DNA of 64,000 bases, taken from positions 62,001-126,000 of the forward strand of contig NW_027437434.1 in NCBI RefSeq assembly GCF_964204645.1. The letters are read 5' to 3'. This DNA is from Tubulanus polymorphus (taxonomy: Eukaryota; Animalia; Nemertea). The notes beneath the pieces were generated by a model. It had not been told where the DNA came from, did no database searches, and saw nothing but the letters and a program-made list of their open reading frames with translations. The translations under genes were made by a program, and so were the position numbers. Numbering within the stretch: position 1 is the stretch's first letter; each line of letters begins with the position of its first letter. This document shows, one piece after another, positions 36,290-63,430 of this stretch.

Positions 36290-36705
36290 ATAATGATGAT
36301 AACGACAATCTAATAGTTTTTATTATATCTTTAATAATAAATTAGGTTATGGTAAAATAGAAACTAAGGATTTAGAAACATTAAATTTTAATAAATTTCC
36401 GAAATTCTATGATAATTTAAAACAAGAAAATAATAATGGTTGGGTTTATTTTATTTTAGATAATAGTGAAAGATTTAGTAAAGCTGGTATACAAAGAATA
36501 AATCAATCAATTAGAACTTATTTGATATGTATTCTAGGTGCTCCAATAGATCGATTCCAGAAAACATAGTTATCAAAATTATTTAGATAGATATAGATCA
36601 TAGAAGATATAATTAAAACCAATAATGATAAAAAGTCCCATGAAAATACTAAATTAGCTATAACTTGTATAGGAATTGTAATAGGCGGAATATTATATTT
36701 TAAAT
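36290..36705 (+). pseudogene. Remnant of a Polinton accessory protein with a C-terminal membrane anchor
   Basis: GWVYFILDNSERFSKAGIQRINQSIRTYLICILGA...SHENTKLAITCIGIVIGGILYF. Resembles, from recall, an ORF recurrent in invertebrate Polintons. Confidence 0.55.
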
Positions 36706-36737
36706 TTTAATTTTTTATTATATAAATAGATATTCCA

Positions 36738-38645
36738 ATGGATACTTTTGGTGACGCCCCTGGTATAAGTGATGAACCACAACTTGATTTTCCTGATACA
36801 AGTACCAGTAATGATGATGGATCAGCATATAATAATAATTTAAATAATGATGAAGATGATGATCCATCATATAATTCTAGTTTAGCTGATGAAGATGATG
36901 GTGTAATTAATTACGAAACGCGTGAAAGATTTAAAGAATATATGACAGCTCCCGAAAGGAAAGTTATTAAACCCGTAACATTTAGAAAAGATTTAATGAA
37001 TAGAATAGTAAATACAACTGATCCTTATTTGAAAGAGCAATTATATGGAATGAAAAGTAGAGTAATAGATACAATTGCTAACGAATTATTACCAAAAGAT
37101 GTAATAGATAAAGTTGATACAGAAGAAATTGTAATGCAAATTTTAAAAGATGATCCACATTTCATGAATAATTTAGAATTTAAAAATGATGTATGGTTTT
37201 ATAATGTTGAATTATATAACAAAACTGCATCAATACAATTATCTAGAATGGGTCAAGAAAATATTTTTGAACCTGGAGTGCGAGCAGGATCTACAATTGA
37301 ACGTTCAAAAGGTGGTTCAGAATTTCTCAGAATTATATGGAATGCACTCGATAGAATAAATGAAGAAGAACCAAATGTTGGTATTGATATTAACAAATAT
37401 TCCCCATTTAAAATTTAAATCCTACTTATGTTGATCCAGAAATGGAAAAGTATGGAGATCGATTAGATAAATTAAGAACTGCAACACCAGAAACATCGAG
37501 AAGAGATATTCAACAAATTGATAATGATTCAAGCAATTACAATAAGGAAAACATTAAGATAACTTACTGGATACAATGAATTCATTTGAAGAACAGAGAT
37601 GAGAATTCCCCGCGGATCCGCGGTTTCCCGCGGATTTCAGTATTGAAAAATATCAATTTTCCAAATAGTCCAAAAATGATGTAAATTTATGGGGGGGGGG
37701 GGGGGGGTGATGATCTCACTCAATTGGTCCGGCGCGATCGGTAATCAGGTGAACCGTAAAAGCGTTCAGTGCCTGTTTTACTTATCGTCACGTAAAAGTA
37801 TCGCATTTCAATGCATATTCATTGCAACACAGTGATTTTGTATGTACATTGTACTACGATGAGTTTGTATGTATTTTATCGATCGGTTGCAGACACGCAC
37901 GCACAGCAACAGTAGTAACTTATATAGGTCTACTTACTGTTGCTGCGTGTGTGTGGCGAACGCTTTCGGATATTATACACTACTTGGTGATGATTTTTAG
38001 TGAGCATTCATCGGCGCATTTTTACTGCAATAATTCAGGGCTCGACCCGTAATGCATGAGATGCTGAATGTCATCAAATGAGGATGTACCACATTGGAAC
38101 TAGCCATTACCTTCCAAAATATAATAGTCGTTCATGGGTTCGAGATCGCTCTAAGTGCTCGGAAAACGTATTTAATTTCTTAAATTTTCTTGGGGGAGGG
38201 CCCCCAAACCCCCCCCCCCCGAAATAGCTTCGCGCCTTCCGCGCTCGCTAGTGCTGACGGCGTAGCCGTCAGCTGGTTCGCGTATGTCACTCAAGAAAAA
38301 ATAACCCGCGGATTTTACAGGTCGGCGTTCTCATCCCTGGAAGAAGAGATGCATAGTATTTTAGATACACCCGGTACTGAAACTGGAACAAATCAAATGC
38401 AATCTTTATTAAAAAAAGGATTACTTGATTTAAATGAAGAACAATTAAAAATATTTCCTGAACAAGCACGTAGAGAAATTAAAGGTATGCAAGAATCAGC
38501 TGGTGAAATTGCCAATATCAAGATGAGATTTTCTAAAATAACCATGTTAAAAAAAGAATTAACTGACGCAAATGAAGAATTAAAACAATTAGAATTAAAT
38601 AAAGATCTTCAAGTAATTGATGAAGTTGAATATGAATGCACAAAG
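36738..38645 (+). pseudogene. Polinton hypothetical protein (acidic N-terminus, coiled-coil C-terminus); frameshifted and split by MITE 37594-38339
   Basis: ORF 36738-37418 continues after a frameshift to about 37593 and resumes at 38340 (EEEMHSILDTPG...) with the same AT-rich codon style. Confidence 0.65.
37594..38339. mobile_element. hAT-like MITE with 6-bp TSD gaagaa, inserted in the Polinton
   Basis: gaagaa|cagagatgagaa...ttctcatccctg|gaagaa. Confidence 0.85.
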
Positions 38646-38649
38646 TTAG

Positions 38650-39656
38650 CTTTGAAAAAAAAATTAACTATAAAGATTGGACCAGAAACAGTTTTTTCAT
38701 GAGATGATTATAATTTATTTATGCATTATAAAGATTTATGGTTAACAAAAGAAAATAGAAATAATATGATATTTCAAGGCATCCAATCAGAAAACCCTAA
38801 TAAATTAAGATCAAGAGCTAATGACGCAATAGTAACTCGTACCGCAGATAATTTGATTAAAAAGATTTATGGAAGCAAATATAAAATTCCATTAGACTTT
38901 GAATTGATAAATAATAATGCGCCTTTATATAAATATGCAATTCAAGAAGATATTATATTCGAAATAACATTTGCTCCTGTTAATGAAATTGTATTATCTA
39001 GCGTTGTTAAAGATATGGGTTATAAATTATCGAATATATGTTTAGAATATGACACAGTAACTGATGAAAATATTTCAAGTATAATTCAAACTCAATACAA
39101 TCAAGGATTTTCATTATTATATGATTATATTGATGAATTTAAAACTGTAACTATTAATGCAAGTGATGAAATAATTAATGAGAATATCAACTTCTCAAGA
39201 AGATCTATTAAAGGTATATTAATATTTTTTACAATTGCTACATATTCTAATGGCGCAATACAGGTTGATAATTATTATAATCCTGAAATATCAAAAGTAG
39301 AAATAACTATCGAAGGTATAGGAAATGAAATATTCTGTCAAGGAATGAGAATGATAGAACAATGGCCAGAAATTAGAAAATATTTTATGAATGAAAAAAT
39401 TAAATCATCTGAAAATTGTAATATTAATCAAATTGATTATAATACCGGCAATAAATATGCATTATGGTTAGATTTTAGAACGACAGAGGATAACTTATTA
39501 CATGGTTCTGGGAAGAAATTACCGAACACTAAAGATGGAATACAATTATTCATGAAAAAGAAAAAAGGAGACTAAAATTTCAAAATGCACATTTATATTA
39601 TATCTGACGCGCAATCAAATATCATAAATTCTCAATTGAATAGTGTTATGTATTAA
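38650..39656 (+). pseudogene. Polinton/adintovirus major capsid protein (double jelly-roll, hexon-like); N-terminus lost, with premature stops
   Basis: KKLTIKIG..VFS*DDY..YKDLW, YKIPLDFEL, YKLSNICLEYD, RSIKGIL, YNPEISKVEITIEG, YALWLDFRTTEDNLLHGSG, ...IISDAQ...Y*. Confidence 0.85.
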
Positions 39657-39689
39657 AATTTTAGTTTTCATAAAAAAATTCTATAATAA

Positions 39690-40797
39690 ATGGAAGGAGG
39701 AATATATGAAATACAAAGTCCAAGTGAAATGATATCGGATATATATTATATAATACCTTATGATGAATATAGTAAGTATTTTGGAGAATACTTTAATGAA
39801 TTCAATTATAGAATAAGTAAAATAGAAAAGAATATTGAAACAAAAAAGAAGATAATATTGAAACAAAAATAGGATATAAGAATATTGAAACTAAAATAGA
39901 AGATAATTTTGAAACAAAAATAGAAGATAATGTTATACCTTCTACATCGAATAATGATAAGATTGAACCTAAAATAACAAAACCAAAAAGACAAATGAAA
40001 AATATTGTGATGTATGTAAAGAATATAAAAGTTATAAGAGTTGGGCAACTCATCTTAATTCAATCAAGAATAATAAAATTAAGAATAAGAATATAAATGA
40101 ATTGAATAATAATAGTGAAATTGATAATGATAAAACTGAAGAAGATAATAATAATGATAAATATTGTGAAGAATGTGATATTTAAGTCGTAGTAATTTTT
40201 CAAAACACAAATTAACTCAAATACATTTGGATAATGTAGAAAGAAATATATGTGAAAAGTGTAATGTTGTTGTATTACCTAAAGATAAAATTAAACATGA
40301 TAATTCTTTTGAGCATTCATTAAAAACTGCTGATCCAAAACACCTTTATAGAATACCAACTGGATTTTTTGATATCGAAAATAATAATCATAGGAAATTA
40401 TATAGATCAATATTCATCGATTATGTAAGAAATAATAAAAAAAAGTATTATCAGATGTAAAAAATCGTTGGACAAATATAAATGAATTTCCAGATGATTG
40501 TTCAGGTATACTTAATTTCATCAAATTTAAGGGAGAGATTTTTTAACAGAATTGAAAAAAGTTGCTGAAGATTTTATAAATAAAATTAAAAATGATGCAA
40601 AAAATAAATATAAAAATATAAGTGAAGGTCAATTAAATCAATATATCTATTTAAATTATGAATTGTTTGCTAAAGGTTTGAGGGCTATCAATAGTTATCA
40701 TACCAAACAATTAGGTGAAGTTGAAGGTAATAGAAAATTAGAAGAATTAAGAGATGCATGGAACAAATTTTTGTTAGAATTAGAATCAGAAAAGTAA
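39690..40797 (+). pseudogene. Polinton multi-C2H2 zinc-finger protein, fragmented
   Basis: YCDVC...WATHLNS, YCEEC...KHKLTQIH and ICEKC...KHDNSFEH motifs spread across ORF fragments. Confidence 0.6.
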
Positions 40798-40812
40798 TTT
40801 AAAATATGAATA

Positions 40813-41704
<892 letters not shown>

Positions 41705-41719
41705 ATTATTTGAAATACC

Positions 41720-43453
41720 TTATTTTATAAATTTATATTCATAGGGAAATTGTAGTCTCAGTATTAATTTTGAAACTTTATTACTTTTTAATTTATTCAT
41801 ATATTTATCATGTAATTCAGTAGGTATTATTTTATTTTCTTCCAATGATTGTTAAATAGATTTTCTATCTTTATTGTAGAATAATACTAAAAATCTAATG
41901 TTTTCTCTAAAATCCTTAACAATTGAACTATATTTTTGATTCAAAACCCATGTTGTAATTCCAAAATGTCTCCCAGAGAAAGCTTAATAGCATAGTTCAC
42001 TTTCTCTAAGTTTTGAATCATGTAAATTTGCACAATCATCTATAATGAATAATGTGTTTGATCCTTTATAAAAATCTAATGCTATTTTTATACAATTATC
42101 TCAATTTTCTTTAACTGTTTTAGGATCTAATATAATAAACTTTTTTGACGCCTTATAAAACGTTACCATTATGAAACTTAAACAATGTTAACCATTCAGC
42201 GTCATTTTACAAACGACAACCGTAAATCGATGTGCAAAACGTCACAGGTTTATGTGTACACATACAAGCTATTTGGCAAAATATTATTGATAAAGATGTA
42301 GAATGGCTCCCTGTGATTATATAATGACCTCTATTTGAACGTCGAAATGTTATATTGCATTGAATATCATGATAAGAGGTATTGTAATAGTAAAGGATGT
42401 ATGATTATATCAGGAGCGGCAGGCATAAATAGAAATGATAAGTAAATCGGATTATTCGGTTAAATGGCGGATGTATACACGATTTGGAAGTCTGATATAA
42501 AAGTCAGACCCTGACATGGGGATGCTAGTGGAATGACGAAGCTATCTACGATCTGAGTAGGGCCGGCGTGAATTTCATCGGCGGCTACAAGCGGTCTATA
42601 TAAAAACGTGTAAACAAATAATTTCAATATTCAAATGTTTTAGAAAATATGTTCGATATTAGGGGTATGCAGGTTTCATGAGATTAGCAATCTATAATAG
42701 CATAGCTGTCATATACGGCTCCGCGTCCGCTGATGGCATGTGTATAAGGTGACAATTCAATTCAATACTTTATTGATCCTTATTACATTGAAATTCCGGG
42801 ATGAAATTCCCAAATTCAATAAAGTTACAAATTTTAGAATAAGAAAATACAAGACACATGGGTAATTCATACAGAATAACATGAATAAGTTATTTAAATG
42901 ACGATGTCAACCCAGACTCAAGTCTAGGATATCGAGTGACAGCCAAACCGGGCCCCGGGACCGGGCCGGCTGGCTACACGATATGCTCGAAGTCATGATG
43001 AAGCAGACATCAGAAGAGCTCTTTCTTCAACCATGGAGGCAATGAAGTTGCAGACCAGCTTAGAGCAAAAGTGAATCGAAGTCGGTCACAAGTTGACATT
43101 TTTTTTTAAATTAGACCAGTCGAAGACTGTATCATCGCCAAATCTCATAATTCCCCAAATTTCTTAAAACTTCGATTTCAAATTTGCAATTCCACATTAG
43201 CTTATCCCAGAAATTCTACATTTTTTCGCAGGCGTCAAATAATTTATTAAAGTTAATTTTCTTGTTTATCTTAACTATATCTCTATTATATGTTTTATTC
43301 ATTTCATAAGTGGGGCAGAATAATATAATATTATCAAAAGGATTCTCATAAATAGTTTCTAACAAGTCTAATATGTAATGTGTTTTACCACAGTTGGTTA
43401 CCCCAGTAACTAACATTATTATGCGGTTCAAATATAAATAAATCTTTATTCAT
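41720..43453 (-). pseudogene. Polinton A32/FtsK-like DNA packaging ATPase, split by an insertion
   Basis: Walker A GVTNCGKT (about 43400). After the insertion: Walker B LFIIDD, SGRH and LNQKY..IVKDFRENI. Three in-frame stops and a 5' frameshift. Confidence 0.9.
42135..43247. mobile_element. 1.1-kb TIR element with TA TSD inserted in the ATPase gene
   Basis: ta|ataaacttttttgacgcct...aggcgtcaaataatttat|ta. Removing it restores the frame KKINFILDPK. Confidence 0.75.
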
Positions 43454-44531
43454 TTATTCTTATAATTTTACTAGATAAAATCCATTCATTGAATTTATCA
43501 TCATACCCTTTATATTTCACCAGAGAATACTTTTTCCTTTAAGAGTTTTTTGTTTTCAATACTTTTTCTATTTTGTATTCTATTTCATCTGGATTTGGTA
43601 CAAGTGATAATTCTTGTTCATAGAAATAACCTAATATTTCTTCATTTTTTAAATCTTCTAATTTATAAACAAATGGTTTAGTAAGTATTATCTTTTTAAT
43701 CTTGAATATTTTTTCGGTAAAATTTGGAGTATAACCTTTATAAAAGGTTTTTCTATATTTATATATTCTAACGTATTGTCCAATTTTAAATTTAGGTTCT
43801 CCGAAATCATGTGTAACAATGGCTCCATAATAATTATTCCAAACTATTTCTGAATTATCTTCTTTTCTAGCTTGTATCGGTTTCATATTTATAGCACTAT
43901 GTTTAGAATTATTTTAACCTTTCACTAAATCATCTAATACATCGATATATTTATATGTTTCATTGGCAGTAAAATATTTCCACATTCTAGTTTTCAATGT
44001 TTTATTAAATCTTTCTATGATAGATGCTTTTTTATCTGAGTGTGTTGAAAAATACTCTTCATCGTTATCAGATAATAGTTTTTTAAAATGTTTATTATAA
44101 AATTCCTTACCTTCATCAAATTGTATCTTACCTGGAATAGCTTCTTTAAATATATTTCTAAATGCATTTGTTACTTCTATACCAGTTTTATTTTTGATTG
44201 GAATTGACCATGCGTATCTACTGAATATATCTATAACATTTAATATCCAGAAATATCCTTTGTTGTATTCTTCTAAGTTCTTCATGTCAATCAAATCTGC
44301 TTGCCATTGTTGATCAATGTATGAAACCATAACTTTTCTCGTTAAATAATTTTTATCCATTTTCTTATGGATTTGATATGTTGGTTGATTTTGTAACCAT
44401 ACTCTTAGTTCACTATATTTTATATTTTCTTTATCAGATTTAATTCTATCCCATAATTCTGAAACACTAGAATATGATACTTCACTCTCTGGAATATAAT
44501 ATAAATCTCTTAAATATTGTTCTTTTTTCAT
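43446..44531 (-). pseudogene. Polinton retroviral-like (rve) integrase with C-terminal chromodomain
   Basis: WQADL, DIFSRYAW, QFDEGKEF, IERFNKTLK (DDE triad); FKIGQYVRI, GYFYEQEL, LVKYKGYDDKFNEWI. Stops at 43914 and 43539. Confidence 0.93.
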
Positions 44532-44537
44532 CTTATT

Positions 44538-44897
44538 TTAATCCGTTAAGAATAATCTTGGTTTATTTTCAATGACTTTATCATTTGACTTATTTTCTGG
44601 TATAATAGGTTTATTATCGGAATCATTATTATTAGATTTGAATTTATATTTATATATTACGCCAGAAAATATAATAACTGTTACTAATCCAATTGTAATA
44701 TATAATTTATTATTACTTCCAGCATTAGATGAATCAGATGGATTATCATTCGAATCAATAACAGATAATTTCTGTGGTTCATTTATATCAGTTAATTTCT
44801 TTTTCTTTGCTTTTCTTTAAAGAAGATCTTCTACCCAATTCCCTTTCCCATTTAATTTCTTTTCGAATCTAGGTTTCTTCTTAATATCATCACTCAT
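44538..44897 (-). pseudogene. Small Polinton protein with basic N-terminus and a single TM helix; frameshifted
   Basis: MSDDIKKKPR...ELGRRSSLKKAKK...LYITIGLVTVIIFSGVIY...LFLTD*. Confidence 0.55.
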
Positions 44898-44971
44898 TTA
44901 TTTTACTTAATTTTTGTTCTGATTCAATATCTTCTGATTTATTTTTATCTTTACATACTATAGGTTTAATG

Positions 44972-45454
44972 TTAGAAAATGTTATAACTACAGTAAAAAA
45001 TCAATGTCATTATTCCACCTAATTGGAATGGAGCGTATCCAACCCATTTCTGTAATTCTCTCATAAATAAATAATCATTCTTTAAATCACTGTATAATTT
45101 ATTTTCATCATCAATTGGTATAATCCGGTTACATAATTTGGAGTAACATTTTATAATACCATCACTTATAGAATCGTTTATTCTAGCTAATCTAGCTTCT
45201 TCATATATTTTGAAATGTTTTATTACTTGATCTGGTTTCATGTTATCTAATTCTTGAAAAGTTATAATTCTATTTAAGAATTCCTTAGATTTCCCACCAG
45301 CAATCAATAGTTCTAGATGGTGCTTACATGTTGAATAGTATTCATAATCAATATTATTTTCAATTTTGGTTGGAATATCCTTATTATCACTAATGCCCAA
45401 ATCATCTAAGGTTTTTTCAATATCAATACTATTCTTACTCGATTTCTTTGACAT
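44972..45454 (-). CDS. Polinton conserved hypothetical protein (C-terminal hydrophobic segment)
   Basis: 160-aa ORF with LIAGGKSKEFL...YEEARL...LKND, located in the viral module. Confidence 0.6.
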   Translation of the reverse strand: MSKKSSKNSIDIEKTLDDLGISDNKDIPTKIENNIDYEYYSTCKHHLELLIAGGKSKEFLNRIITFQELDNMKPDQVIKHFKIYEEARLARINDSISDGIIKCYSKLCNRIIPIDDENKLYSDLKNDYLFMRELQKWVGYAPFQLGGIMTLIFYCSYNIF

Positions 45455-46141
45455 TTATATTAGCGAAAAAGTAGAAAAAATTAAACTTATTCTTCAAATG
45501 ATACTAATAACTCTTTGGGTTAATACTAAATTGACTCGGTTAGTTAAAGTTAAAGAATTTCTATTCAAATCTTATCAAAATACAAAGTATTCCCTTTTTG
45601 AAAAGAAATGTTAGATTTTGAATAAAAATATAATAAAATTCACTAGCTACTTGAAGTTATTGTTTTTTTAAATATTTTTTATTTAAATTAGGATTTAGAA
45701 TATCTCACTACCTTTGTCTATCTATAGGAGCAGTTAATATAAGTGTCCAGATAAGTCATTTCGGATCCTTGATATTAAACCTAGTTAATAATCAGAAATA
45801 TTAGAATAGTTAGTTTAATTATTGTTTTACAACCGTTTCTAATTATTCATTATTCAAAATTCTTTGCTTTAATTTTTACAGTCGTTTCTAATTATTACGT
45901 TGAAAGTTGGCAGCACTGAGTGAATTAGATACTGAAATGAAAATTTGAACTGGAATTTGAATTTAATATTCAATTAACATGGATAATTGATTACTGATTT
46001 GATTAAAAATTCGATCATAATTAAGTTAAAAATCCATAATTCATTCATCAGTTTTCATTCTTATATTCTTTTCATTCGGAATAATTTAGAATTTCAAATA
46101 ACGTAAACACCGTTTATATTGACTTCGGTGTTTTAGCTAAG

Positions 46142-46148
46142 TATATAA
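46142..46148 (+). promoter_or_regulatory. TATA box about 31 nt upstream of the structured RNA
   Basis: TATATAA; the first paired G is at 46173. Confidence 0.5.
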
Positions 46149-46172
46149 GGCAATTCATTCGACCACTGAAGT

Positions 46173-46461
46173 GCCGCCGAGCCTGGCTTGCAGGGGCATT
46201 TCGAAAATGCACCTTTGTCCACCCTCTGTGGTTCTCCTTCAGTTTCGACTTTCGATCCTCCCTTCGGGGGTTAAGGGTTGATAGGAAACGCATTAGGCGC
46301 CTTAAATATAATGTGTTTCCTGTCAACTATTGAAGGAGAATTGGTGAGGCGTGGGTCACAGGGGTGTAAATAGAAATGCTTGGGGATAAGTATCTTGTGG
46401 CGCCTCTCTATAACGGGATGCTTATCCCCTAGAAACTCTGCGAGTCAGGTCGGGTGGTTTT
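46173..46461 (+). ncRNA. Candidate Polinton-encoded structured ncRNA (~290 nt) with twin GGCGCC loops
   Basis: Seven manually paired helices with G-U wobbles, paired 5' and 3' ends, cUUCGg tetraloop, TTTT at 46458-46461. Confidence 0.8.
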
Positions 46462-46742
46462 GCTAAAACTTACCTTAAAACTGAAATTCCTTTTAATCAC
46501 GAGAGAGAATGTATCCTGTGTGTATTGTATGTACTGCGTGCTTAATCCAACTGCTAGCTATCCAATATAACATAACAACAAATGGCAACACCTGTTTGAT
46601 CGATCAATTTTCAAATTAATTACTCCCGTGGATTGAGCGTGTGGCAGATGTTAGGTATATACACATGGTTATAGTTGTTCGTAAAACGACTAAGTGCTTA
46701 TATATACACGTGTGACTCGAGTAGAGTTCTTATCATAAACGC

Positions 46743-47019
46743 TTAAGATTCAACGTGTTTTTCATTCTGTGTTGAATTCCATAATTCAACAAATGCCTTT
46801 GCTTTATCCAGTTGATCTAAATATAATTTCATATCTAGTTTGTTTCCTTTCCTAATATTTTCAAATTTTTCTAAAGGATCTTTGCTTACCATCTTTCTGA
46901 GTTTTATAAGTATAATATTCCGAGAGTTGTTTATTCAATTCACATTTTGAACATTTCTTATGATAAATATTAACAACACTATTTGTAATATTAATAGTTT
47001 GTGATTGTTCCGGCTCCAT
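46743..47019 (-). pseudogene. Small Zn-ribbon protein (KCSKC..K.LSEY....DG motif), about 90 aa, one frameshift
   Basis: MEPEQSQ...KKCSKCELNKQLSEYYTYKTQKDGKQRS.../ENIRKGNK...HVES*. Absent from the ORF track because of the frameshift. Confidence 0.55.
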
Positions 47020-47050
47020 TTATTAAACATATTTTTTTACTAAAATTTGA

Positions 47051-50014
47051 TTAACACGCTAGAATTCTTTTCATAATCTCATTCTCTTTTGTTTCTTCCC
47101 TTCTAAATTTTAAGTATTCTTCTAAATTGCAACCATACGCGACTGTATGAATTCCATCATCTAAAATATATCTTTTATCGTCAAATGGATTTAGACTAAC
47201 CTTTTCAATTTCTTCAATAAACATCTCGTGGTACTCAGATCTTAAACATTTCATCCTGTGTTTTCTTACTTCTTCATTAAATATACAATTGATGTAATCT
47301 TTAAAATGAATATTCTTTTCAACAACGCTTTTGGTAATTCCTTTTAACTTTTTAGATTCATGAGTTTTGGTTTTATATGAATACATTTTAGATCGAATTC
47401 CAATGAATTCAATCATTTCTTCACCTCCTAATTCATCTTTGAATTTACCGGACACATTTTTATTATCATTGTAAAACAATTCATGATCTTTTGGATAATT
47501 ACTTAAGTCGAAATGATGTTTTAATGTTTTTAAATCATCTGTTATGTTATTAGTTTTTATCTTTAATATGTAACTGTCGGTATCAAAATATAAGATTTCT
47601 ATATGCTTTTCTCCAAAATGAGGTTGTAATACGTTATAATAGAATTCATACATTAATAATTTTGATATTTCTAAAACTGTAGCACCAATATAAATTGGTT
47701 TATTAAATTTTATAGAAGTTCTTCTCATTTTAACTGCAGCTAAATTTTCATCAAATATTCTGTTACCTATGAACTTAGGATATGTTTGTAAATGCCTTAA
47801 CCTTTTACCATTACTAACTAACTCAATATCATTTCTATTTCTAACATTTTCACAAGTCTTACCATAGAATGCATTATTCATTAACTTGAAGAAATCTTTC
47901 TAAAAATCAGTATTAGCTTTAGTTCTCTGTTTGGTGTTAAAAACTATATATTTTTCTAACCATTTAGATTGACTGAATGAAATATATCTACGTACTTTTT
48001 TTAGACTCATTCCTCGATTCAAATATAATTTTAACGTTCTATAATGCACTACATGATTATATTTATCTTCCTGAGTTACCATTAACCTTTCTGTATGAAT
48101 ATGATTTTCGGGTTTAATTCTTTTTTGGTAATTTGATAATTCTTCATGTGTTACAGTTTTATATTCGGGGCAGTAAGCTAGATTTCTAGATTTAAATTTT
48201 CTAACTTCAGGAGGATATTCTGAATCTACAACAAAGAAGTAACCAACATTTATCTGCTAAATCAAATTCTTGTTTATCTTCTTCTGTCATTATAATTTCT
48301 TTATTTTCATTTAACTTTTCATTAAATTTTATTTCATATTCAATTAATAAGTCACAAAAATGATTGATAACATTTTCATTTCTATAATGATAATATTCAA
48401 TTTCAATTAGTTCTGCATAATTAGATTTAATATATAATCCCAAAGCTGCAGCACTTTGATAGATCTTTTTAATAGTATTTGTTATTAGAGGATCTGAATA
48501 ATCAATTATATCATTTTCATTAGAATTTAATTTCTTTCTTTTATGATATATTTCTTTTCTATCTTGGTCAGTTAATTCTTTATTTAGTGATTCAAAATCT
48601 CCATATATTACAAATGGTACTTTATTCTTGTAATCATATTTTTTAAATTCTAATAATTTATCCTTTTCATTTGGTAAAACTATTTTACAATAATCATGAT
48701 TTTCACATAATTGTTTATGATTCAATAATGCACTTTCATTACTGAATTTATGTAAACATTTTCTACATAGATATATTTTATTATCAAAATCATTTTCTGA
48801 TTTGAAAAATAAATCAATTCTTTTAATCCACGTATAATGATTCTCATAATGTAATATATCTATAACATCATTTGAATCATAATCTTTTGATAAGTATAGA
48901 GGTTCTGATGTATAATTTTCAATATTATTACCTTTTGTTCTTGGTAATTTGACTAAATCAAATACATTTATCTTTATATTATTATCTCTTTCTATTTTTG
49001 GAATATCTTTAATTCTAACAGGATAATTATCTATCTTATAATTATTTTCAAATGGTTTATAATTTGATACTCTACAAATATTATCAGTTGCAGGATGTAA
49101 GCAACTAATTATTCACCATAGAAAGCATTAGTTTTAAATGGTAATTTGATATAACTTGATCCATTAATATAATCATCTTTATAATATGATAAATTATTTT
49201 CATCAATTGGTTTAGATTTAGTTAATTTATTATATTTTGTGTTATAAACATGTTAATTCATAAATATTATTTCATCGAATATTAAACCAGATCCTTCAAA
49301 ATATTTCTCTTCCATTTTACTTTTTATTTCATTATAACATTTATCTAATTTATCATCTACATGTTGTTTTGACATAATATGTTGTGAATGAGAATTTATA
49401 TTATATATTGGTTCATCTTCAGATTTTAAAAATTTAACTTTAACTGATATACCAATCTTAGGGTATTCAACACCAGTAATTATTTTTATAATACTTTTCA
49501 TATTTTCTAAATGTTTTTTATTTTCTTCTAATGTTTCACTTTTATGAAATTTAAATTCAATAGCAGCTGGTCCAATATTGCTTTCAAATGCTTCGGTTAT
49601 TTCTGTTTCTTTTTTATTATCTAATGAATTAATATAATTTCTTACATCTTCCATGTATGGCCTTTTATTGTTTATTTTATTTTTTATTCTTTTAATTGTC
49701 TTCTGTTTCTTATCATCATCATTATCAAAATAATCTTCACCTAAAATATCATTATTCATATTTCTTATATGTATTTTAGATTTTAAATGTTCTTTATAAT
49801 ATCTTTTGTTACTGAATGATTGATTACATGTATCACATTTGTATATTTCTTTTTCATTCTTTAATTCATCTGATTTAGTTTCTAATATATCATCTTTATA
49901 TTCTCTTTTTTATTTATTTTCTAAGTGAGATTTAGTTTTATTGTGTCTTGCTTATTGAGATTTATCTATATCAATTTTACATGTTGAACAGTGGTACTTC
50001 TTATTTGCTTCCAT
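47051..50014 (-). pseudogene. Protein-primed family B DNA polymerase (pPolB) with N-terminal C2H2 fingers; internally deleted
   Basis: YHCSTC..H..KSH and YKCDTC..H..KIH fingers, exonuclease I VIYGDFES, GYFFVVDSEYP, NNAFYGK, YFDTDS, GKFKDE, KLKGI, PFDDKRY. Confidence 0.95.
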
Positions 50015-50270: not shown

Positions 50271-51800
50271 TTTTCTTCCACACTATTTTTACCAAAAGAA
50301 CATAGGCTTTGTTACCTTACCGCTGTTTCATATACAATCCATATAATATCGTTCAGCTCACTGAGATCTACAAATAGCCCGCGTGTTTTTTCACGAATCA
50401 TCGTTACAAAAGCGCTGTCGGGCCGTAAACATCGAAAATCTAGCCCCATTCAATGGGGCGACATGTTTTTCGAGTCGTCATCCCGAAATCAACCCGCAGG
50501 CCGACTGTCACTTCGATTATCAATTCAAGTATAAATGAACTAATTTATTGCCGCAGACTTCACATTCAGTCGCGGTCTTCAGACAGTGATTTTAACAATA
50601 GCCCATTTTCCTCATCAAATCATATTACCGATACACTGGAAATTTACTACTTTAGATTTTAAAAGCACTGTCGAGCCGTAAACATCGACGAATCGACGTG
50701 TGTTACTACATCGTCGTTCCGGGGATCAGCTGCGAGTTTCTCCTCATCATGAAACTACGTGTAGTGAGCCTGTTATTCCAGCCTCGTATTCAGATATAGT
50801 GTGTACACACTGTACAGCTGCCTGTAGATACTGGTTGACATGAAATGTATAACTTAGCATGACGGAGCGATGATAACTAACGTTAACGTTAGTATATAGC
50901 ATCGGATACTGATACTCAAATTTCTCTGAAACAAAAACTCCAGGTTTCGTAAAAACTGAGTATATTACTGAGTAGGCTCGATTGTTCAAGTAGATATATA
51001 TAGTGAATGTCTGTGCATCGATTTGTTCAGGTATTATTTCAACTCACGATTGCATCATTCCGCGACAATTCAATATTTTGTTTTTATCGCCCGCGACGAT
51101 TCAATATCTTGTTTTTGTCGCCCGAGACAATTCATTATTTTGGTTTTATCGCCCGCGACAATTCATTAGTTTGGTTTTATCGCCCGCGACAATTCATTAC
51201 TTTGGTTTTATCGCCACCGACAATTCATTATTTTGGTTTTATCGCCCGCGAAAATTCATTAGTTTGTTTTTGTCGCCCGCGACAATTAATTAGTTTGGTT
51301 TTGTCGCCCGCGACAATTCAATATTTTGGTTTTGTCGCCCACGAAAATTCAATATTTTGGTTTTATCGCCCGCGACAATTCATTACTTTGGTTTTATCGC
51401 CACCGACAATTCATTATTTTGGTTTTGTCGCCCGCGACAATTCATTATTTTGGTTTTATATTTTGTTGTTGTCGCCCGCGACAATTTTCTTTTTTGGTTT
51501 TATCGCCTGCGACAATTCAATATTTTTGTTTTATCGCCCGCGATTATTCATTATTTTAGTTTTGTCGCCTGAGACAATTCACCATTTTGGTTTTGTCGCC
51601 CGCGACAATTCACCTTTTTGGTTTTGTCGCCCGCGACAATTAACCATTTAGGTTTTGTCGCCGGCGACAATTCACCATTTTGGTTTTGTCGCCCGCGACA
51701 ATTCATTATTTTGGTTTTATCGCCCGCGACAATTCATTAATTTTGATTTATAGCCCGCGACAATTCATTATTTTTGTTTTGTCGCCCCGACAATTCTTTT

Positions 51801-54423
51801 TAGGCCAGCCGTAGGCTGAGCCTATTACTATACAAATGGAGCGAATTTAAATGACATTGTTTCCACACAAAAGGCTCTTTTGCTTGCCAAGTGAGGGCAT
51901 ATTCGAACGAATCACGTATTTAAGCGTAATCCATTCTCGGAATCGTAGCGAGCAGAATTTTGAAATAGGCTTTCATAAAAATGTTTTCTGCATTTTTCAC
52001 GAAAATAAAATCGGGAAAATTTCAATTTTTATCAGCCAATCAGGAAGTTGTGTCTTCCCTGTGATTGGTTTATCTAAAAATATCAGCAGCTGTTCACGTG
52101 AATTATCGTGATTTCATTACTGGCGCTTTTGCGCATGACGTCATGTATCAACACGCGACAATACTTCCTTGTTCGCTACGTGTTCGCTGATTGGCCCATT
52201 TACTGGGAAATTCCACAGAAGCCTAATGTGGTTTGTTACAAGCGCTGTGATTGGCCCGACCTGATTCTGGCACGGCTTTAGCTTAGTGGGTTCGAATCCC
52301 TTGACGGGAGAAGATGATGGATCCTATCGATGCTATCAACAAATAAGTTTCCCGGTTGGGCAGCTGCGGATATCTACCGAAAGTGTTGCGGTTCGATATT
52401 TCGAGGTTTCTTTGAATTTTGGAGTGATATTGAAATCGGGTAAACACCGGCGGTAGATTGTGGTGAAAACCCATTGCTTGATATTTGTACTACTTAATCA
52501 ACGAAAAGCGTCGGGACCGCGCCAGGAGTTTTCGCGATTCAAGTAGCTCAATAGCCTACTTCTTCGTGTTCGTCCACCTCCGCAATTTTCACTCCGCCGA
52601 TCTCTGACACGGCTCTGTCGCCGTCGGCGCTGTGATTATTACTATTATTACTATTCGTACCACCAAAATTTTTTATTTCTATATCAGGGAGGTCTGGAGA
52701 ATAAAAAAGTCAAAATTTGGATATCACATTGGCCTGATTTCATCGAATAAGTCGACCATGGTTGTTACGTTTCCGTACGAATTACCACCAAAACCGTCTG
52801 AACAATTTTGTCACAACCAACATTTCGTTTACAGAAATCAGGTGCTCACGTGAACCCGCGGTATCGTCTATTGTTTTACTTCCGGGTTTTATTTTAAGAT
52901 TTAAAATCGTATTTCAAGATCGATTTCTTTATTTTAGTCTTTAGTTGATTTGGTGTTTGGGAGGAATTTTTATTTGCTCTACAGAAAATTCATCCTTGAC
53001 AATTGCGCAAGGTTCGCAAAAAATTGCTTTTCCCAAATCGAGTGTATGAACTTGATATGCTAATTAGCCATGTGCTCGAATTGCAAATTCAATCAAATTT
53101 TATTCTGCAAAAAAAATGTTAAATCCAATTCGCTTTCCGAGAGTTAATGGTATGCTGCATGGAACAAAGTTGTTCTGAGATGGGTCTTGAAGCTATTGAG
53201 TCGAGAGATAACCATCTAGATAGTTCGTGAGAGTTCCAAAGTTTTGAAGACGCTTCAAGGTAATGTCTTGATATTTGGTTTATACGTGTATCTACCCTAG
53301 ACACATCTTCAGGCCAAAAACCGGCCCTGTCAGATTCAAGATGGCCGACTGGCAGCCATTGTTGTTCGCCAAAAACAGCACTTTTTACACATTTTAGAAG
53401 TTTTCGAGGGGAATTTTGAAGACACTTTTATCAATAACCTTGATCATTCGTATATATTTGTATCCCCCAAGGGCCCATCGGCATGAGAAAAATTGGGTCG
53501 ATCGGACTCAAGATGGCCGTCCTGTGACCTTTTTTGTTCCCAAAAATGTTAATTTTGGCCTGAATTCTGAGTCCTGTAGCTTTCTAATGGTGTGCCATTT
53601 TTCATTGCAATTTGTAATGGGTATTCTTTGGAAAAGGATCTTTTATATCCGAGAGGGTATTTTTGACCAGGCAATTATGACGCAATTGGCGGCCATCGGC
53701 ATGAGAAAAATTGGGTCGATCGGACTCAAGATGGCCGTCCTGTGACCTTTTTTGTTCCCAAAAATGTTAATTTTGGCCTGAATTCTGAGTCCTGTAGCTT
53801 TCTAATGGTGTGCCATTTTTCATTGCAATTTGTAATGGGTATTCTTTGGAAAAGGATCTTTTATATCCGAGAGGGTATTTTTGACCAGGCAATTATGACG
53901 CAATTGGCGGCCATCTTGGGGTCATCAGTACTCATTCGTAGGTGGAAAAAAAGTTTAGCCACATCATTTTGATACTTAAGCATATTTTGCTACCATAATT
54001 AATTGGAAAGTTGTAGCTCATGACATGTTCTATGATTGAGGTGAGTTTCAAGCTCAGTGGTTTTTGTTTATGGCCACCAGGGGGCGTTGAACATTACAAT
54101 AACTTAGTATTTCTATATTACATTCGTAGCTATGCATATTTTGCTACCATAATCAATTGGAAAGTTGTAGCTCATGACATGGTCTATGATCTTGGTGAGT
54201 TTCAAGCTCATTGGTTTTTGTATATGGCCACCAGGGGCGTTGAACAATACAATAACTTAGCATTTCTATATTACATTCGCTCCTGCTGTCTGTGTTAACA
54301 CACGATTGTACTATGTAAATGACATTGAGCAGGGAGTGTATATTGATAAATATAACCCACAGATTACATCATTTATAAAAAGCAAATCTGACAGGCTGGC
54401 CATTGTGCCCCTTGGGGCTCTTG
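51801..54423 (+). mobile_element. Composite Helentron/HINE-like element (family A ends, family B interior, 221-bp tandem duplication at about 53470-53915)
   Basis: aggccagccgtaggctg start; ggctggcc...gccccttggggc end; inserted in a satellite T run. Confidence 0.7.
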
Positions 54424-55181
54424 GTTTGGTTTTGTCGCCCGCAACAATTCAATATTTTGGTTTAGTCGCCCGCGACAATTCAATATTTTGGTTTTGTCGC
54501 CGGCGATATAATTCATTAATTTTGTTTTATCGCCCGCGACAATTCAATATTTTGGTTTTATCGCCCGCGACAATTCATTATTTTGGTTTTATCGCCCGCG
54601 ACAATTCATTATTTTGGTTTTGTCGCCCGAGACAATTCATTATTTTGGTTTAATTGCCCGCGACAATTCAATATTTTGGTTTTATCGCCCGCGATAATTC
54701 ATTATTTTGGTTTTATCGCCCGCGACAATTCATTATTTTGGTTTTATCGCCGGCGACAATTCAATATTTTGGTTTTATCGCCCACGATAATTCATTATTT
54801 TGGTTTTATATTTTGTTTTTATCGCCCGTGCCAATTTTTTTTTGGTTTTGTCGCCCGCGTCAATTCAATATTTTGGTTTTATCGCCCGCGACAATTCATT
54901 ATTTTGGTTTTGTCGCCCGAGACCATTCATTATTTTCGTTTTATCGCCCGCGACAATTCATTATTTTGGTTTTGTCGCCCGCGACAATTCATTATTTTGA
55001 TTTTGTCGCCCGCGACGATTCAATATTTTGTTTTTGTCGCCCGAGACGATTAATTAGTTTGGTTTTGTCGCCCGCGACAATTCAATATTTTGGTTTTATC
55101 GCCCGCGACAATTCATTAGTTTGGTTTTGACGCCCGCGACAATTCAATATTTTGGTTTTGTCGCCCGCGACAATTATTTTT

Positions 55182-56425
55182 CAGTCCACTTGGGACTTTA
55201 GTCCCAGCGGGCTATTGCGTTCACTTTTCATCCGTCCGTCCGTCCATAGACGGAATCCAGTTATTTTGGGAAGTTTTGAAGACGCTTCAAGGTAATGTCT
55301 TGATATTTGGTTTATACATGTATCTACCCTAGACACATCGTCAGCCCAAAAACTGGCCCAGTCAGATTCAAGATGGCAGCCATTGTTGTTTGCCAAAATC
55401 AGCACTTTTTAAACATTTTCGAAGTTTTCGTGGGAAATTTTGAAGACGCTTTGATCAATTACCTTGATCTTTCGTTTATATTTGAATCTACCAAAGGCCC
55501 ATCAGCATAAGAAAATTGGGTCGATCTGACTCAAGATGGCCGTCCTATGACCTTTTTAGTGCCCTAAAATGTCAATTTTGGCCAGAATTCTAGGTTACGT
55601 AGCTTCCTACTGGTTTGCCATTTCTCATTGCAATTGCTGATGGGTATTCTTTAGAGAGGGATGTTTTATACCTGGGACAGGTATCTTTGATCAGCCAATT
55701 ATTACGCAATTGGCGGCCATCTTGGTGTCATCAGTACTCATTCGTAGGTGGGAAAAAGTTTTTCCTCATTAAATTGATACCTAAGCATATTGTGTTACTA
55801 TATTCGATTGGAAAGTTGTAGCCCATAACGTGTTCTATGATTTTGGTGAGTTTCAAGGTCATTGGTTTTTGTATGTGGCCATCAGGGGGCGTTGAATAAT
55901 ACAATAACTTAGTATTGCTATATTTGTACCAAGGCATATTTTGTTACCATGATCAATTGCAAAGTTGTAGTTCATTACATCGTCTATGATTGTGGTGAGT
56001 TTTTAAGGACATTAGTTATTCCATATAGTCACCAGGGGGCGTTGAATAGTAGAATGGCTTAGCATTTCCTTATTAGATTGGTACCTAGGCATATTTTGTT
56101 ACTATGATCAATTGCAAAGTTGTATTTTATGACATGTACTACGATTGGGGTGAGTTTTAAGGTCATTGGGTTTTGCATATGGTCACCAGGGGGCGTTGAA
56201 TAGTAGAATAACTTAGTATTTCCATATTAAATTGGTAACGAGGCATATTTTGTTATCACCATCGATTACAAAATCATAGCTGCTCATATGTTCTATGATT
56301 GTGGTGGGTTTCAAGGTCATTGGTTTTTGTATATGGTCACTAGAGGGCGTTATGTATTGAAATTGTTAGATTGTTGAGCATTTGAAACCACTTCTTCAGT
56401 GAGCATGGTGTCCCTGGACCCCTAG
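55182..56425 (+). mobile_element. Helentron/HINE-like element (family B) inserted in the satellite
   Basis: Same ends and internal ~150-bp array as 5242-7427. Confidence 0.75.
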
Positions 56426-59993: not shown

Positions 59994-61440
59994 CCGACTC
60001 CGTGAAGAAAAGACACAGTTTGGCCGAGCTATGAAAACCCCTGCATCTGGAAGTGGACGGAAAGCACCAACTCCAAGACTAGAGTGCATTGAAAAGCAAT
60101 TAACGTTCTTGTCTCCTCATATGAAGCATAGAGATACACAGTCAAATTTCGAGGTAAAAAATTTAAATGCCATTATTTTATTACAAATGATTTTCACACG
60201 ATATTATAAGTAAAAACGTTTCCATTACGTAAGTCATATGAAAAGTAAATAGAGTTCTACATGTATTTCTTAAACCATGCTATCTTGCCAACTCACAGAA
60301 CCTTCATTCATAAAATATTCAATTAAGGAAAGCCGTTTTTCTTTTGCTTGCACACTACTAAAGTTACTATGTGGTAAGCCAACTGATTGCAATATGTCAT
60401 CAGTTCTCCATTCGCCATCTGACCAGATACGACTTTCCGTGTCTTCGCTATCTATGAGTCCTTGGTGCGTGTAGACAGGGTCCCCAAGATTTCTCAAGAA
60501 ATTGTGGAGAACACATGCGGCGAGTACTATTGTCTCAACGCGGTCAGGTTGAAGGCACATTCTGCTCAAGAACACACGAAATTTCTGGCACAAGATCCCA
60601 AAGGCGTTTTCGACAACACGTCTTGCTCGTGACAGCCTGTAGTTATATATCCTTTGCTCTATAGTCATATTATGGAACGGATATGGTTTCATTATGTAGT
60701 CCTTTAAAGGAAAGGCATCATCAGCAAGTATATGATACGATAGCTCTTTCTCACTGTCTGGCAATTGAGATTTCTTTGGAATGTTGAGAAGTCTCTGTTC
60801 AAGTGCTTCAGCTAGTGAACATGTATTGAACACTCCGCCATCAGATATGCGACCGTTACAACCCACATCAACATAAACGAATTTATAGTCCGCATCGACT
60901 AGGGCCATCAATACAATGCTAAAAAACTTTTTATAGTTATAATACACCGATCCCGAGTTTTTAGGTGCATTAACAGCAATGTGCTTTCCATCAATTGCAC
61001 CAATGGTATTCGGAAAGTTCCACTTTTCATCGAACTTATCAGGAATTTTCTTCCATTCATCTTCTGTTTGTGGCATCTGCAATAAAAAATTTAATTGATA
61101 AATTACTTTATATTTCAGCTTGATGAACCTATATCTGACAATGAAATTGACATTGAAAACGACGACTCCAGTGAAAGATCTTTTAGTCGATGTAGTACAC
61201 CCGCTCCATGTACTAGTAATGCAGAGTCTAGTATACCGCGAGCATCAACGCCATCACAGGAAACTAAACGGAAAAATGCTGGACCAAATAAACGCAAATC
61301 ACAAACGGATACGAGGAGCAGTCAGGATGTTTTGGAATCTATTACACATTCATTAGCACGTCCAATTGAAGTGTCTACTCCAATTGTTCAGAAGTCGTCA
61401 GAAGACCAGGCACTAGGACATTTGTGGGAAATTGTAGAAA
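59994..61440 (+). pseudogene. Harbinger-associated MADF/Myb-like gene remnant (exons 59994-60153 and 61119-about 61440)
   Basis: [21 protein letters not shown]...[19 protein letters not shown], then gtaaaa...tttcag, then LDEPISD in phase 0. Resembles a MADF C-terminal segment plus acidic/Ser-rich linker. Confidence 0.65.
60270..61076 (-). CDS. PIF/Harbinger transposase (DDE_Tnp_4, HARBI1-like), 3' exon
   Basis: WNFPNTIGAIDGKH, YYNYKKFFSIVLMA, GRISDGGVF, LADDAFPL, YNYRLSRARRVVENAFGIL; ttgcag acceptor at 61077. Confidence 0.93.
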   Translation of the reverse strand: MPQTEDEWKKIPDKFDEKWNFPNTIGAIDGKHIAVNAPKNSGSVYYNYKKFFSIVLMALVDADYKFVYVDVGCNGRISDGGVFNTCSLAEALEQRLLNIPKKSQLPDSEKELSYHILADDAFPLKDYIMKPYPFHNMTIEQRIYNYRLSRARRVVENAFGILCQKFRVFLSRMCLQPDRVETIVLAACVLHNFLRNLGDPVYTHQGLIDSEDTESRIWSDGEWRTDDILQSVGLPHSNFSSVQAKEKRLSLIEYFMNEGSVSWQDSMV

Positions 61441-61758
61441 CAATTGCGAAAATTAATCATGCTATCACGTCTGCTGTGTTTATGTTTATCGTTATGTTTA
61501 TCGTATTCTTGCTTTACGTCGTTCGGATAAAATAACCATAGCTCAAGGCCTTTCATATAATATGTTCAATTGCGGTAAAATATCATTTTTCAATAGATTT
61601 TTGAAAGGCCTCTATCGTATCAGTATCACACGCGGACAAAACGGGGGGCCGGGGAGGCCTGGAATGAAAGCCTACAGCCAGGCTTGTCCGTGCAAAGCGT
61701 GTCGCAATTTCTTCATCACACAGGTCAGACACATCATATTCATTTTATATTGTTGTAG

Positions 61759-63430
61759 GAATGAATCTAATATCCAAGTCGTTAACGGTGGAGAACTACG
61801 TTCTACAGATATATACGCGACGTATTCGGAGGGTTGCTTCAGTCGAAATGTTATTCCACGATCCAACGCCGAAATAGGAAAATTTATTAGATGTATATAT
61901 CCGTTTGTGGAACACAAGAAACTATACGTCGGAGGAAAAGTCTGCAACGGTTACCTGAATGTCTCTTGGCGACCGAAGATGTATGAAACTATATCGGATC
62001 TTAACGAATTGGGGACTTTGTTTCCAAACGCGATATTCTTGAAAACGTCTTTTACTTCAACTAAAGTAATTTTGCCGAGTGGAATGGCGGTAAATGATAT
62101 ACCCGTCAATCGAGAAATTGTGTTCGATTTTCATGAAATGGTCTATCGCGTATACGTCAGGACTCGTGAACTCGATCTAAAAAAATTGTACATGTCATCG
62201 AAATTCAAAATGGATAAATCTGTTTCAAATATCTTGAACCTATGTACGAAAATTAAATTGTGCATTGGAAAGGTAAAACCGAACCGTTCAATCGTAAGGA
62301 ATATGTATGTTGAAAATGTTATGTGCAATGGTCAGTCCGCAATCGTCTGCGTTCGATCGAAAAACTGTGCGAGGGCTGTACCTTTTAACAGCGGAAAACT
62401 GACCGTCTCGTGCAAACCATGCCGTGATATCGTTCTGTGTGAACCGTTTGAAAATGTTTGAAGACGCCTACGAGTGGGACCGTCGAAACGCCGTACAGGT
62501 CCATAGGCATCTGTCACGGGAACATATCTATCTAAACGGAGCCAGTAAAATGCGGAATCATCTTGCCGAACAAGTACTGGATGTAGATATGCTACAATTG
62601 TTCATGGAGTATCAGGTACGTGTACTTAAAGCTCTTTTTAGGGGTTTTAAAATGGAAGGTAACAGGAAAAAAATTAAAATATATTTTTTTTAATCATTTG
62701 AATATTTTCCACATAGAACTTCGGAATGAATCCTGGAAAAAATTTAAAAGGAGTAAAAATTGTGATGAACTTGATTCAAATGATGGGAGAAATGAAAAAA
62801 AAACTAACTTTTTTGCAAATCACGAGATTGAAAATTAAGAAGAGAAAATCAAGACGCACATAAAAAATTACTCTAAGTTATAAAAAACGGCCTTACTATT
62901 TGCTAAATATACGAATTTAATTGATATTTTATTGCCTTTCAAAATATTTTTTCAGGGAAGTCTCGGGGAAGAAGGCGGTAAGCTGAACGGGTGCATCGAG
63001 ATACTCCGACAGACATCGTTGCTGGTGAAAATATTCCGCGATTCCAGATGCATTAAAGACACCAACGACGAGAGATTAACGCAACTAGAAGGGGTTCACA
63101 ATTGGTTCCTTTCATGGGAAAAATCGGTGTTGGAGAGTGACATAAATGACGGAGAAAAAAAGAAGAAACACCTGTCTTACCAGTGCAGAGATGATCTGAA
63201 ATCAGCCATTTTGGGATTCATATCACTATGCAAGGACAGGTATAGGTTTAGCAATTTACGTAACTACATTTTTCTCATTAAATCAAACAATCATTACTTT
63301 TCCTTCACTTTTTAGATTACAATACAACCCCATAAATCCAGGACGACTTAACAGCGAGAGTATAGAGAATCATTTTTGCCAGCAACGGGGCTTCAATGGT
63401 AACAAGACTAACCCGACATATGCCGTTTAC
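61759..63430 (+). pseudogene. P-element/THAP9-like transposase remnant, spliced and internally deleted
   Basis: SKMRNHLAEQVL (about 62545), exon 62956-63238, and RLNSESIENHFCQQRG..NPTY (63316-63420). GT-AG introns 62617-62955 and 63239-63315. Confidence 0.7.

Follow-up and report, generated by a model that had tools for sequence, protein, structure and literature searches.

A predicted structured RNA with twin palindromic loops in a Polinton family of the nemertean Tubulanus polymorphus

A decayed Polinton and its genes

The DNA analysed here, referred to as the window, is a stretch of 64,000 nucleotides from Tubulanus polymorphus, and all positions given are positions within it. Judged from its gene content, the region from about 36,300 to 50,000 is a decayed Polinton with a capsid gene. 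An earlier reading made from the sequence only had named a Polinton/adintovirus as carrier, and polymerase motifs, an rve integrase, an A32-like ATPase and a double jelly-roll capsid model agree with that assignment. The gene for a protein-primed family B DNA polymerase (47051..49909, - strand) is broken into several frames, which contain the motifs KLMNNAFYGK and YFDTDS and are 63-79% identical to a 1241-aa protein of the sister element L011; Pfam and PDB searches returned no polymerase match, and the identity of the polymerase rests on its motifs. Next to it lie the remains, in two pieces, of an endonuclease VII/HNH-like gene whose middle is missing in this copy (46749..47019, - strand); they are 60-62% identical to proteins of the sisters L011 and L010. 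A Polinton gene of unassigned function (44972..45454, - strand), which served as the query that fetched sister elements, is followed by an interrupted retrovirus-like integrase gene (43452..44531, - strand; Pfam rve, E 1.3e-8) and by a gene for an A32-like packaging ATPase, split by a 1.1-kb insert (41723..43416, - strand; Pfam Pox_A32, E 7e-4, below the cut-off). The major capsid protein gene (38652..39653, + strand), the 5' part of which lies outside this frame, encodes a product 74% identical to the protein P0012, which was modelled as a double jelly roll (pLDDT 88, Foldseek E 4e-17). The ends of the Polinton were not found; a search for inverted pairs counted 482, and the 25 longest, those listed, all belonged to one TA run.

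Some further features of the window were recorded. A 750-nt G+C-richer insert in the Polinton (37590-38345) has matching ends, CAGAGATGAGAA ... TTCTCATCCCTG, and is likely a host MITE. The 1.1-kb insert in the ATPase gene (42149-43254) is present in a single copy within the window, with many loose reads at its edges. Minisatellite arrays with a 31-bp unit occupy 50943-51875 and 54355-55006, repeats of 218 and 154 nt occur near 53200-56000, and a frame for a DDE (Harbinger-type) transposase adjoins an RFX-domain frame at 60270-62461. No Pfam match was obtained for the flank frames scanned, which were 30 of the 46 long ones.

Between the endonuclease remnants and the gene of unassigned function, the stretch 46173..46461 forms an island of 50% G+C in neighbouring DNA of 20-32% G+C, so that base composition bears out the island described earlier. 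As the genes on both sides are read on the - strand, the + strand fold described below is no untranslated region or message part of its neighbours. About 290 nt separate the island from the nearer end of the endonuclease remnants, and the corresponding L011 protein matches endonuclease VII in PHROGs (E 6e-12), so an RNA partner of this nuclease, as in nuclease-plus-RNA mobile systems, was considered. We regard such a partnership as extremely unlikely, since remnants and RNA lie on opposite strands and L011 and L010 have whole homologs without a nearby G+C island. In these two sisters the endonuclease-like gene (L010 1299-1811, L011 4079-4849) is found at a different place and on a different strand, as a mobile gene would be.

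Fold of the + strand and its variation among copies

When 46173-46461 was folded as RNA, the + strand reached -153.9 kcal/mol (z = -12.75, about -12.8), a value equalled by 0 of 200 shuffles, and the - strand reached -99.7 kcal/mol (z = -6.3), a gap of 54 kcal/mol between strands. The comparison of both strands with shuffled controls, proposed earlier as a check, thus came out in favour of the fold. This stretch gave the top 289-nt fold among the windows scanned across 35-51 kb, and the DNA flanking it folded like its shuffles (z = -0.5 and 0.3). Of the 108 pairs in the minimum free energy (MFE) structure, 20 are G-U, and a single A-C opposition lies in P1 within a 2x2 loop. The abundance of G-U pairs had been taken to favour an RNA on the + strand, and this argument is strengthened by the gap, as decay of a DNA palindrome would yield G-U and A-C equally; a plain DNA palindrome in the Polinton-like contig L008 is strand-symmetric (-123.5 versus -131.8 kcal/mol). 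Long strand-symmetric DNA palindromes were seen in L008 at 1700-1900 and in L012 at 3033-3105. G-T is also better tolerated than A-C in DNA, and with DNA parameters the G-T side folded at -64.4 and the A-C side at -49.7 kcal/mol, as would suit a structure formed by the + strand when displaced as single-stranded DNA in protein-primed replication, a signal for packaging, pausing or recombination that involves no RNA. That reading is very unlikely in our estimation, because a TATA sequence at -31 and a TTTT at the end of the stem fit a transcript and because the structure is absent from L011.

The predicted structured non-coding RNA (46173..46461, + strand, 289 nt) has paired ends and two multi-way junctions, a model that draws on fold and copy variation. 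The 5' strand of P1 (46173..46195) pairs with 46436-46458 in 6 + 15 bp and contains a compensatory pair, 46183/46448. The 5' strands of the long arm (46196..46243) contribute P2 (7 bp), P3 (11 bp), P3b (4+4 bp) and P4 (15 bp), their partners lying in 46329-46379. P6 (46276..46328) is a 53-nt hairpin with 20 bp and a 13-nt loop, and P7 (46382..46429) a 48-nt hairpin with 17 bp and a 14-nt loop. The near end-to-end pairing that had been claimed is therefore real in the prediction, with P1, P2, P4, P6 (20 bp) and P7 (17 bp) as described. Two elements of that description are not supported. The P3 helix proposed before (46220-31/46356-66) costs 19 kcal/mol when forced (-134.7 kcal/mol) and uses a T at 46227 that is absent from 520 of 528 reads; the MFE structure places 46208-18/46358-68 and 46219-26/46346-54 in this region. 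The cUUCGg hairpin is weak, with a pair probability of 0.36 in another register, and the C that would close it (46262) is absent from 413 of 434 reads.

As to known families, a search of 45600-47000 against Rfam gave five matches at E<=10, none of which overlaps 46173-46461, and the whole 64-kb window gave 0 matches at the gathering cut-off; the Rfam check recommended earlier therefore leaves the RNA outside any Rfam family. In the absence of an Rfam match, hammerhead and other ribozymes, 7SK, SRP, RNase P/MRP, Y and vault RNAs were rejected as candidates. Telomerase RNA was rejected as well, because the telomere-like run at 46269-79 is not common to most copies.

Variation was studied in genomic raw reads of the same species (run X4, 12% of the run, mapped at 80% likeness). 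Depth was 514-683 over the polymerase gene, 512 and 592 in the two RNA bins and 117 and 138 in the adjoining non-coding bins. The resulting RNA/polymerase depth ratio of 0.93-0.97 is a relative measure, not an absolute copy number. Reads leaving the shared block enter uniform sequence, with an agreement of 0.97 at 45984, 0.91 at 46506 and 0.94 at 46616, and of 0.83 at 46099 and 46118 (among the entries listed, six of which were for X4, out of 84 for all runs); the sequence joined at 45984 is evidently a homolog of the flank found there in the window. According to depth and loose ends, the block common to most family copies (45984..46510) consists of the upstream region, the RNA and a short trailer. 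Polinton-level depth and uniform flanks indicate that 46173-46461 is not a free SINE or MITE. This candidate was rejected on the depth ratio and on loose-end agreements of 0.91-0.97, and also because target-site repeats, terminal inverted repeats and tRNA-type boxes were not found and the fold is strand-asymmetric.

The variation set comprised those 40 of 107 differing sites whose share lay above about 39%, 16 of them within the RNA. Differences fell on 6 of 216 paired and on 10 of 73 unpaired positions (Fisher p 0.0013), to be read with the limits that the copies are related and non-independent and that the structural model comes from the copy in the window. Five of the six differences at paired sites keep pairing with the window's partner base; a random transition at a paired site was computed to preserve the pair in 59% of cases and a transversion never. 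The sixth (46448) is one half of a double change with 46183, C-G in the window and U-A in copies, and the U-A combination is carried by records 3 and 7 of run X2, the overlapping contigs of greatest depth (621 and 480), although one compensatory pair is thin support for structural selection. Among the insertions listed, 10 of 12 lie in the 3' flank. The stem-sparing differences, together with the strand gap, uphold the earlier claim of selection at the RNA level, and they support the conclusion that the RNA is a structured element selected on the + strand and carried by a Polinton family.

The same pattern bears on whether the RNA is a precursor, transcribed by RNA polymerase III (Pol III), from which Drosha or Dicer cuts guides out of P6, P7 or the terminal stem. 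P6 (53 nt) and P7 (48 nt) form almost perfectly paired hairpins, P1 has 21 bp and a short 3' U tail, and the terminal stem of adenovirus VA-I is described as a Dicer substrate (PMC7589676). However, guides need constant arms, and here the stem letters vary with pairing kept while the loop hexamers are constant; moreover, the window holds no long complement elsewhere. A precursor role thus appears quite unlikely.

About one quarter of the reads belong to a second subfamily (122 reads, agreement 0.99), which shares the TATA region, P7 and the 3' strand of P4 and differs in P1 and P6; correspondingly, depth peaks at 645-690 over the TATA region and at 700-770 over P7, compared with 445-490 over P6. 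It contains a TTTT about 30 nt after the RNA start and diverges left of about 46120 at 80% likeness. In the upstream DNA, 603 reads diverge from the window at 45779, and the window carries the minority form from 45779 to 45984. At 46100-46120 most copies have a different sequence; the window's hairpin at 46105-46133 is not general, and CACC alone is common. The same 8-mer, TTTCAAAT, occurs at 46092-46099 and 46609-46616 and ends exactly where two read groups leave the window; its length is unremarkable in A+T-rich DNA, and the coincidence is unexplained.

Range among Polintons and transcription signals

Five close sister contigs (L010-L014) were compared, among which gene order varies. In L011 the order polymerase - endonuclease-like gene - ORF - integrase is that of the window, and there is no G+C island in the matching interval, the polymerase-to-ORF interval being about 1 kb longer in the window than in L011. 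This interval is spanned by one of the five sisters, L011; L010, L012 and L014 have less than 470 nt there and L013 has another gene order, and in the sequence available for the five contigs no G+C island was found. From its absence in L011 it follows that Polintons generally do not need the RNA, and sequence comparison indicates that it is a lineage-specific gain of this Polinton lineage, narrow in range. Contig depth in run X1, which gives no copy number, was 10-30x lower over the RNA than over the polymerase, so many, more distant Polintons of the species may lack it. The sequence-only reading had treated absence from sister Polintons, combined with many free copies, as the sign of a SINE or MITE: absence was found in L011, and many free copies with flanks of their own were not seen.

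Homologs were sought more widely. In the viral and genome contig collections, distant Polinton-like polymerases only were found (9 loci at 34-48% and 14 loci at 39-54%), and two other Polinton genes had no relatives there. A search of viral contigs with the twin-loop pattern returned one match, a tandem repeat, and a search with a 23-nt P7 pattern returned 0; blastn of the RNA against phages found none, and blastn and nhmmer against 29 loci gave no match on the RNA. A stem scan of 237 kb (the 29 loci plus the window) yielded seven hairpins, the two with GGCGCC being the RNA's own, and in a fold scan of 417 windows none came near the RNA at 46173-46461. Taken together, the evidence leads us to regard 46173-46461 as a genuine RNA structure, under selection and absent from the catalogues, that has become fixed in a single Polinton family.

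The RNA might have come from the host as an RNA gene or SINE-like unit, captured by the ancestor of the Polinton family and carried as a passenger with a structure serving a host function. Its G+C content far from the viral background, its absence from L011 and a second subfamily that, at 80% likeness, departs from the window to the left of about 46120 are in line with capture; Polinton-like viruses are described as acquiring host tRNA, snRNA and rRNA genes (PMC12220804), and a low-copy host gene would be invisible beneath the depth seen here. Even so, we judge capture unlikely, for the RNA has no Rfam family and no box A/B, no convincing target-site repeat was seen (the longest, 8 nt, lies in A+T-rich DNA), and the differences among copies spare the stems as they would not in a passive passenger.

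Upstream of the RNA, TATATAA (46142..46148, + strand) occupies -31 to -25 and is a candidate type-3 Pol III TATA box. Its placement is matched by 1.1% of 5000 shuffles, odds that were computed after the motif had been seen, and the surrounding 46127-46160 shows zero differences among those listed, coincides with a depth peak and is common to both subfamilies. A CACC at 46108..46111 (+ strand; -65), kept in both upstream forms, is a possible, weak core of a proximal sequence element (PSE); the fit is confined to this core and comprises 6 of 12 positions of the human consensus by eye (PMC5493778), PSEs being taxon-specific (PMC9841428). Directly after P1, TTTT (46458..46461, + strand) is a candidate Pol III terminator, with a second TTTT at 46491-46494. 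Both signals, TATATAA near -31 and TTTT behind the closing stem, had been pointed out before and were found as described. The box A/B-like motifs reported with them dissolve on comparison with shuffled sequence: the best matches do no better than chance, being equalled in 35%, 34% and 44% of 1000 shuffles. The RNA of the window copy has no inner TTTT, as is the case for 20% of shuffles; in the second subfamily, a Pol III transcript would be cut by the TTTT at about +30, if four T suffice.

U6-type Pol III genes are described as having a PSE and a TATA box (PMC5493778, PMC9841428), and at the level of sequence TATA and TTTT suggest a gene of this type here. With U6, 7SK and insect telomerase RNA the locus shares a TATA about 30 nt upstream, a possible PSE core and an end in a T run (PMC5493778, PMC9841428); in contrast to them, it has no Rfam match, sits in a viral element and has a PSE that is a candidate only. 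Run X6, guessed to be RNA, has two contigs on 43000-50000 and none over the RNA, which has no bearing on expression. In our assessment 46173-46461 is probably an expressed stand-alone RNA gene.

Twin palindromic loops and possible roles

The loops of P6, GGCGCCUUAAAUA, and P7, GGCGCCUCUCUAUA, each open with the self-complementary hexamer GGCGCC (46296..46301 and 46399..46404, + strand), and both hexamers are predicted kissing sites, unchanged in the deepest X2 contig covering each site. In the 64 kb of the window GGCGCC occurs three times, and the two copies in the P6 and P7 loops are the sole ones within the Polinton. The same palindromic hexamer would appear in two such loops by chance with a probability of 2.2e-4, according to a simulation made for a motif seen beforehand. 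All differences of X2 records 3 (14 differences) and 7 (5 differences) could be placed and none falls in the hexamers, and each of the two loops varies 3' of its hexamer (46304 and 46409). The four possible loop-loop pairings are about equal in energy, at -14 to -15 kcal/mol as free duplexes. P6 (20 bp), a kiss (6 bp) and P7 (17 bp) add up to 43 bp and the arm between the junctions measures 41 bp plus loops, so that the molecule could close on itself by a kiss to give a rod of two helices. The remaining 7-8-nt A/U-rich parts of the loops would suit a strand that crosses the minor groove. P6 and P7 are thus likely a kissing-loop pair, as predicted from their loops. The two hairpins may derive from a duplication, but the likeness of their stems is not significant, being matched in score by 10.5% of 5000 stem shuffles. 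The idea that the loops bind the 3' ends of tRNAs was rejected, for the UGG needed occurs in P7 alone and lies partly in the stem.

GGCGCC has been described as a dimer contact in MMTV RNA (PMC4264320). With the HIV-1 DIS, the MMTV PBS palindrome and oskar the RNA shares a six-base self-complementary loop sequence, in the case of MMTV the identical hexamer. It differs from them in that a single small RNA from a DNA virus has two such loops, with predicted pairing, and in that the hexamer occupies the 5' part of a 13-14-nt loop. This twin-palindrome design is unusual.

Palindromic loops also permit links between molecules, and chains may form. Self-assembly of the RNA by its twin kissing loops into a closed two-helix ring, chains or meshes that control sensing of double-stranded RNA or scaffold a viral factory is possible, if improbable. 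In a purely structural version, two-handed molecules would link into rings, chains or a mesh as a scaffold for packaging or for a replication compartment. Two self-complementary loops with four pairings similar in energy would favour such linking, a purely intramolecular clamp would require no palindromes, RNAs with two loops are described as forming variable multimers (PMC7357161), and the element encodes a capsid protein and a packaging ATPase. Against this, L011 has the same gene order without the RNA, which is consequently not a core packaging part, the loops of phi29 pRNA are described as non-palindromic, and the likeness of the two loops may come from the putative duplication of P6 and P7. 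On balance a structural scaffold is rather improbable. Like phi29 pRNA and ROOL/GOLLD, the RNA has two loops per molecule able to link molecules; as the sources describe them, however, those RNAs belong to phages and bacteria and the pRNA loops are not palindromes, whereas here the RNA is optional in its lineage. If self-assembly were true, a eukaryotic virus would have a natural equivalent of the RNA-only assemblies that have to date been known in phages and bacteria.

The closest comparison is with adenovirus VA RNA I/II, in published descriptions likewise a structured RNA with many G-U pairs, made by a virus of the same broad lineage. Further points of likeness are a T4 end and a terminal stem in which the two ends pair, both found in 46173-46461, a second T run 30-40 nt further on, and a loop-loop contact, which here is predicted (PMC7589676, PMC6599070). 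Kinship with VA RNA, which the sequence-only reading had entertained, does not hold up: box A/B are missing within the gene and an upstream TATA takes their place, and the RNA is nearly twice as long, with 289 nt and two multi-way junctions as against about 160 nt and three domains in descriptions of VA RNA. VA RNA is described with a 3-bp pseudoknot, in contrast to two long hairpins with identical 6-nt palindromes here, and the sequences do not match. The 4-mers of the GGGU-ACCC pair of VA RNA are present (46221-24; 46353-56 and 46452-55) and mutually unpaired in the MFE structure. Because three of the defining features listed in PMC7589676 fail, 46173-46461 is not a VA RNA; by analogy, it may nevertheless work like one.

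On this analogy, the best reading, which we favour tentatively, is a decoy transcribed by Pol III that mimics double-stranded RNA and is clamped by kissing loops. Host RNA polymerase III would transcribe the gene from the upstream TATA to the T run, the transcript would form a rod rich in wobble pairs, its two GGCGCC loops would kiss, and the kiss would fix the shape of the RNA. So shaped, the RNA might mimic double-stranded RNA and bind the sensors or RNAi proteins of the host yet fail to trigger them. This role is proposed from adenovirus VA-I, which is described as wobble-rich and as kept from activating PKR by a loop-loop pseudoknot (PMC6599070).

Polintons occur widely in animal genomes, where they may live as viruses in the face of host defences. 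An RNA gene under structural selection would offer a handle on this question, since a short RNA is open to detection, probing and assay without virus, and the twin palindromic loops provide a sharp and cheap structural test. If the decoy reading were true, the VA-RNA strategy would have been invented independently in an adenovirus-related lineage with another promoter type. The matches listed, from open-access text without supplements, contain no described Polinton equivalent of VA RNA, and the main text of the adintovirus paper mentions neither non-coding RNA nor Pol III (PMC8502044). Polinton-like viruses do resemble the present case in having RNA genes in a Polinton-type genome (tRNA, snRNA, snoRNA and rRNA genes and group I introns; PMC12220804). 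Those are Rfam families, mostly host-derived, whereas 46173-46461 matches none, and within the accessible text of that study RNA genes are recorded solely as Rfam families (PMC12220804). Scans based on Rfam are blind to RNAs of the present kind, so more of them may await as G+C islands in A+T-rich elements.

Two observations on other Polinton-like contigs were made in passing. The sister L013 carries a thymidylate/nucleoside kinase-like gene at 8919-9557 (PHROGs E 9e-20). Polinton-like polymerase or capsid genes were also seen in assemblies labelled as bacteria or archaea (L016-L029, P0020), probably mis-binned host DNA.
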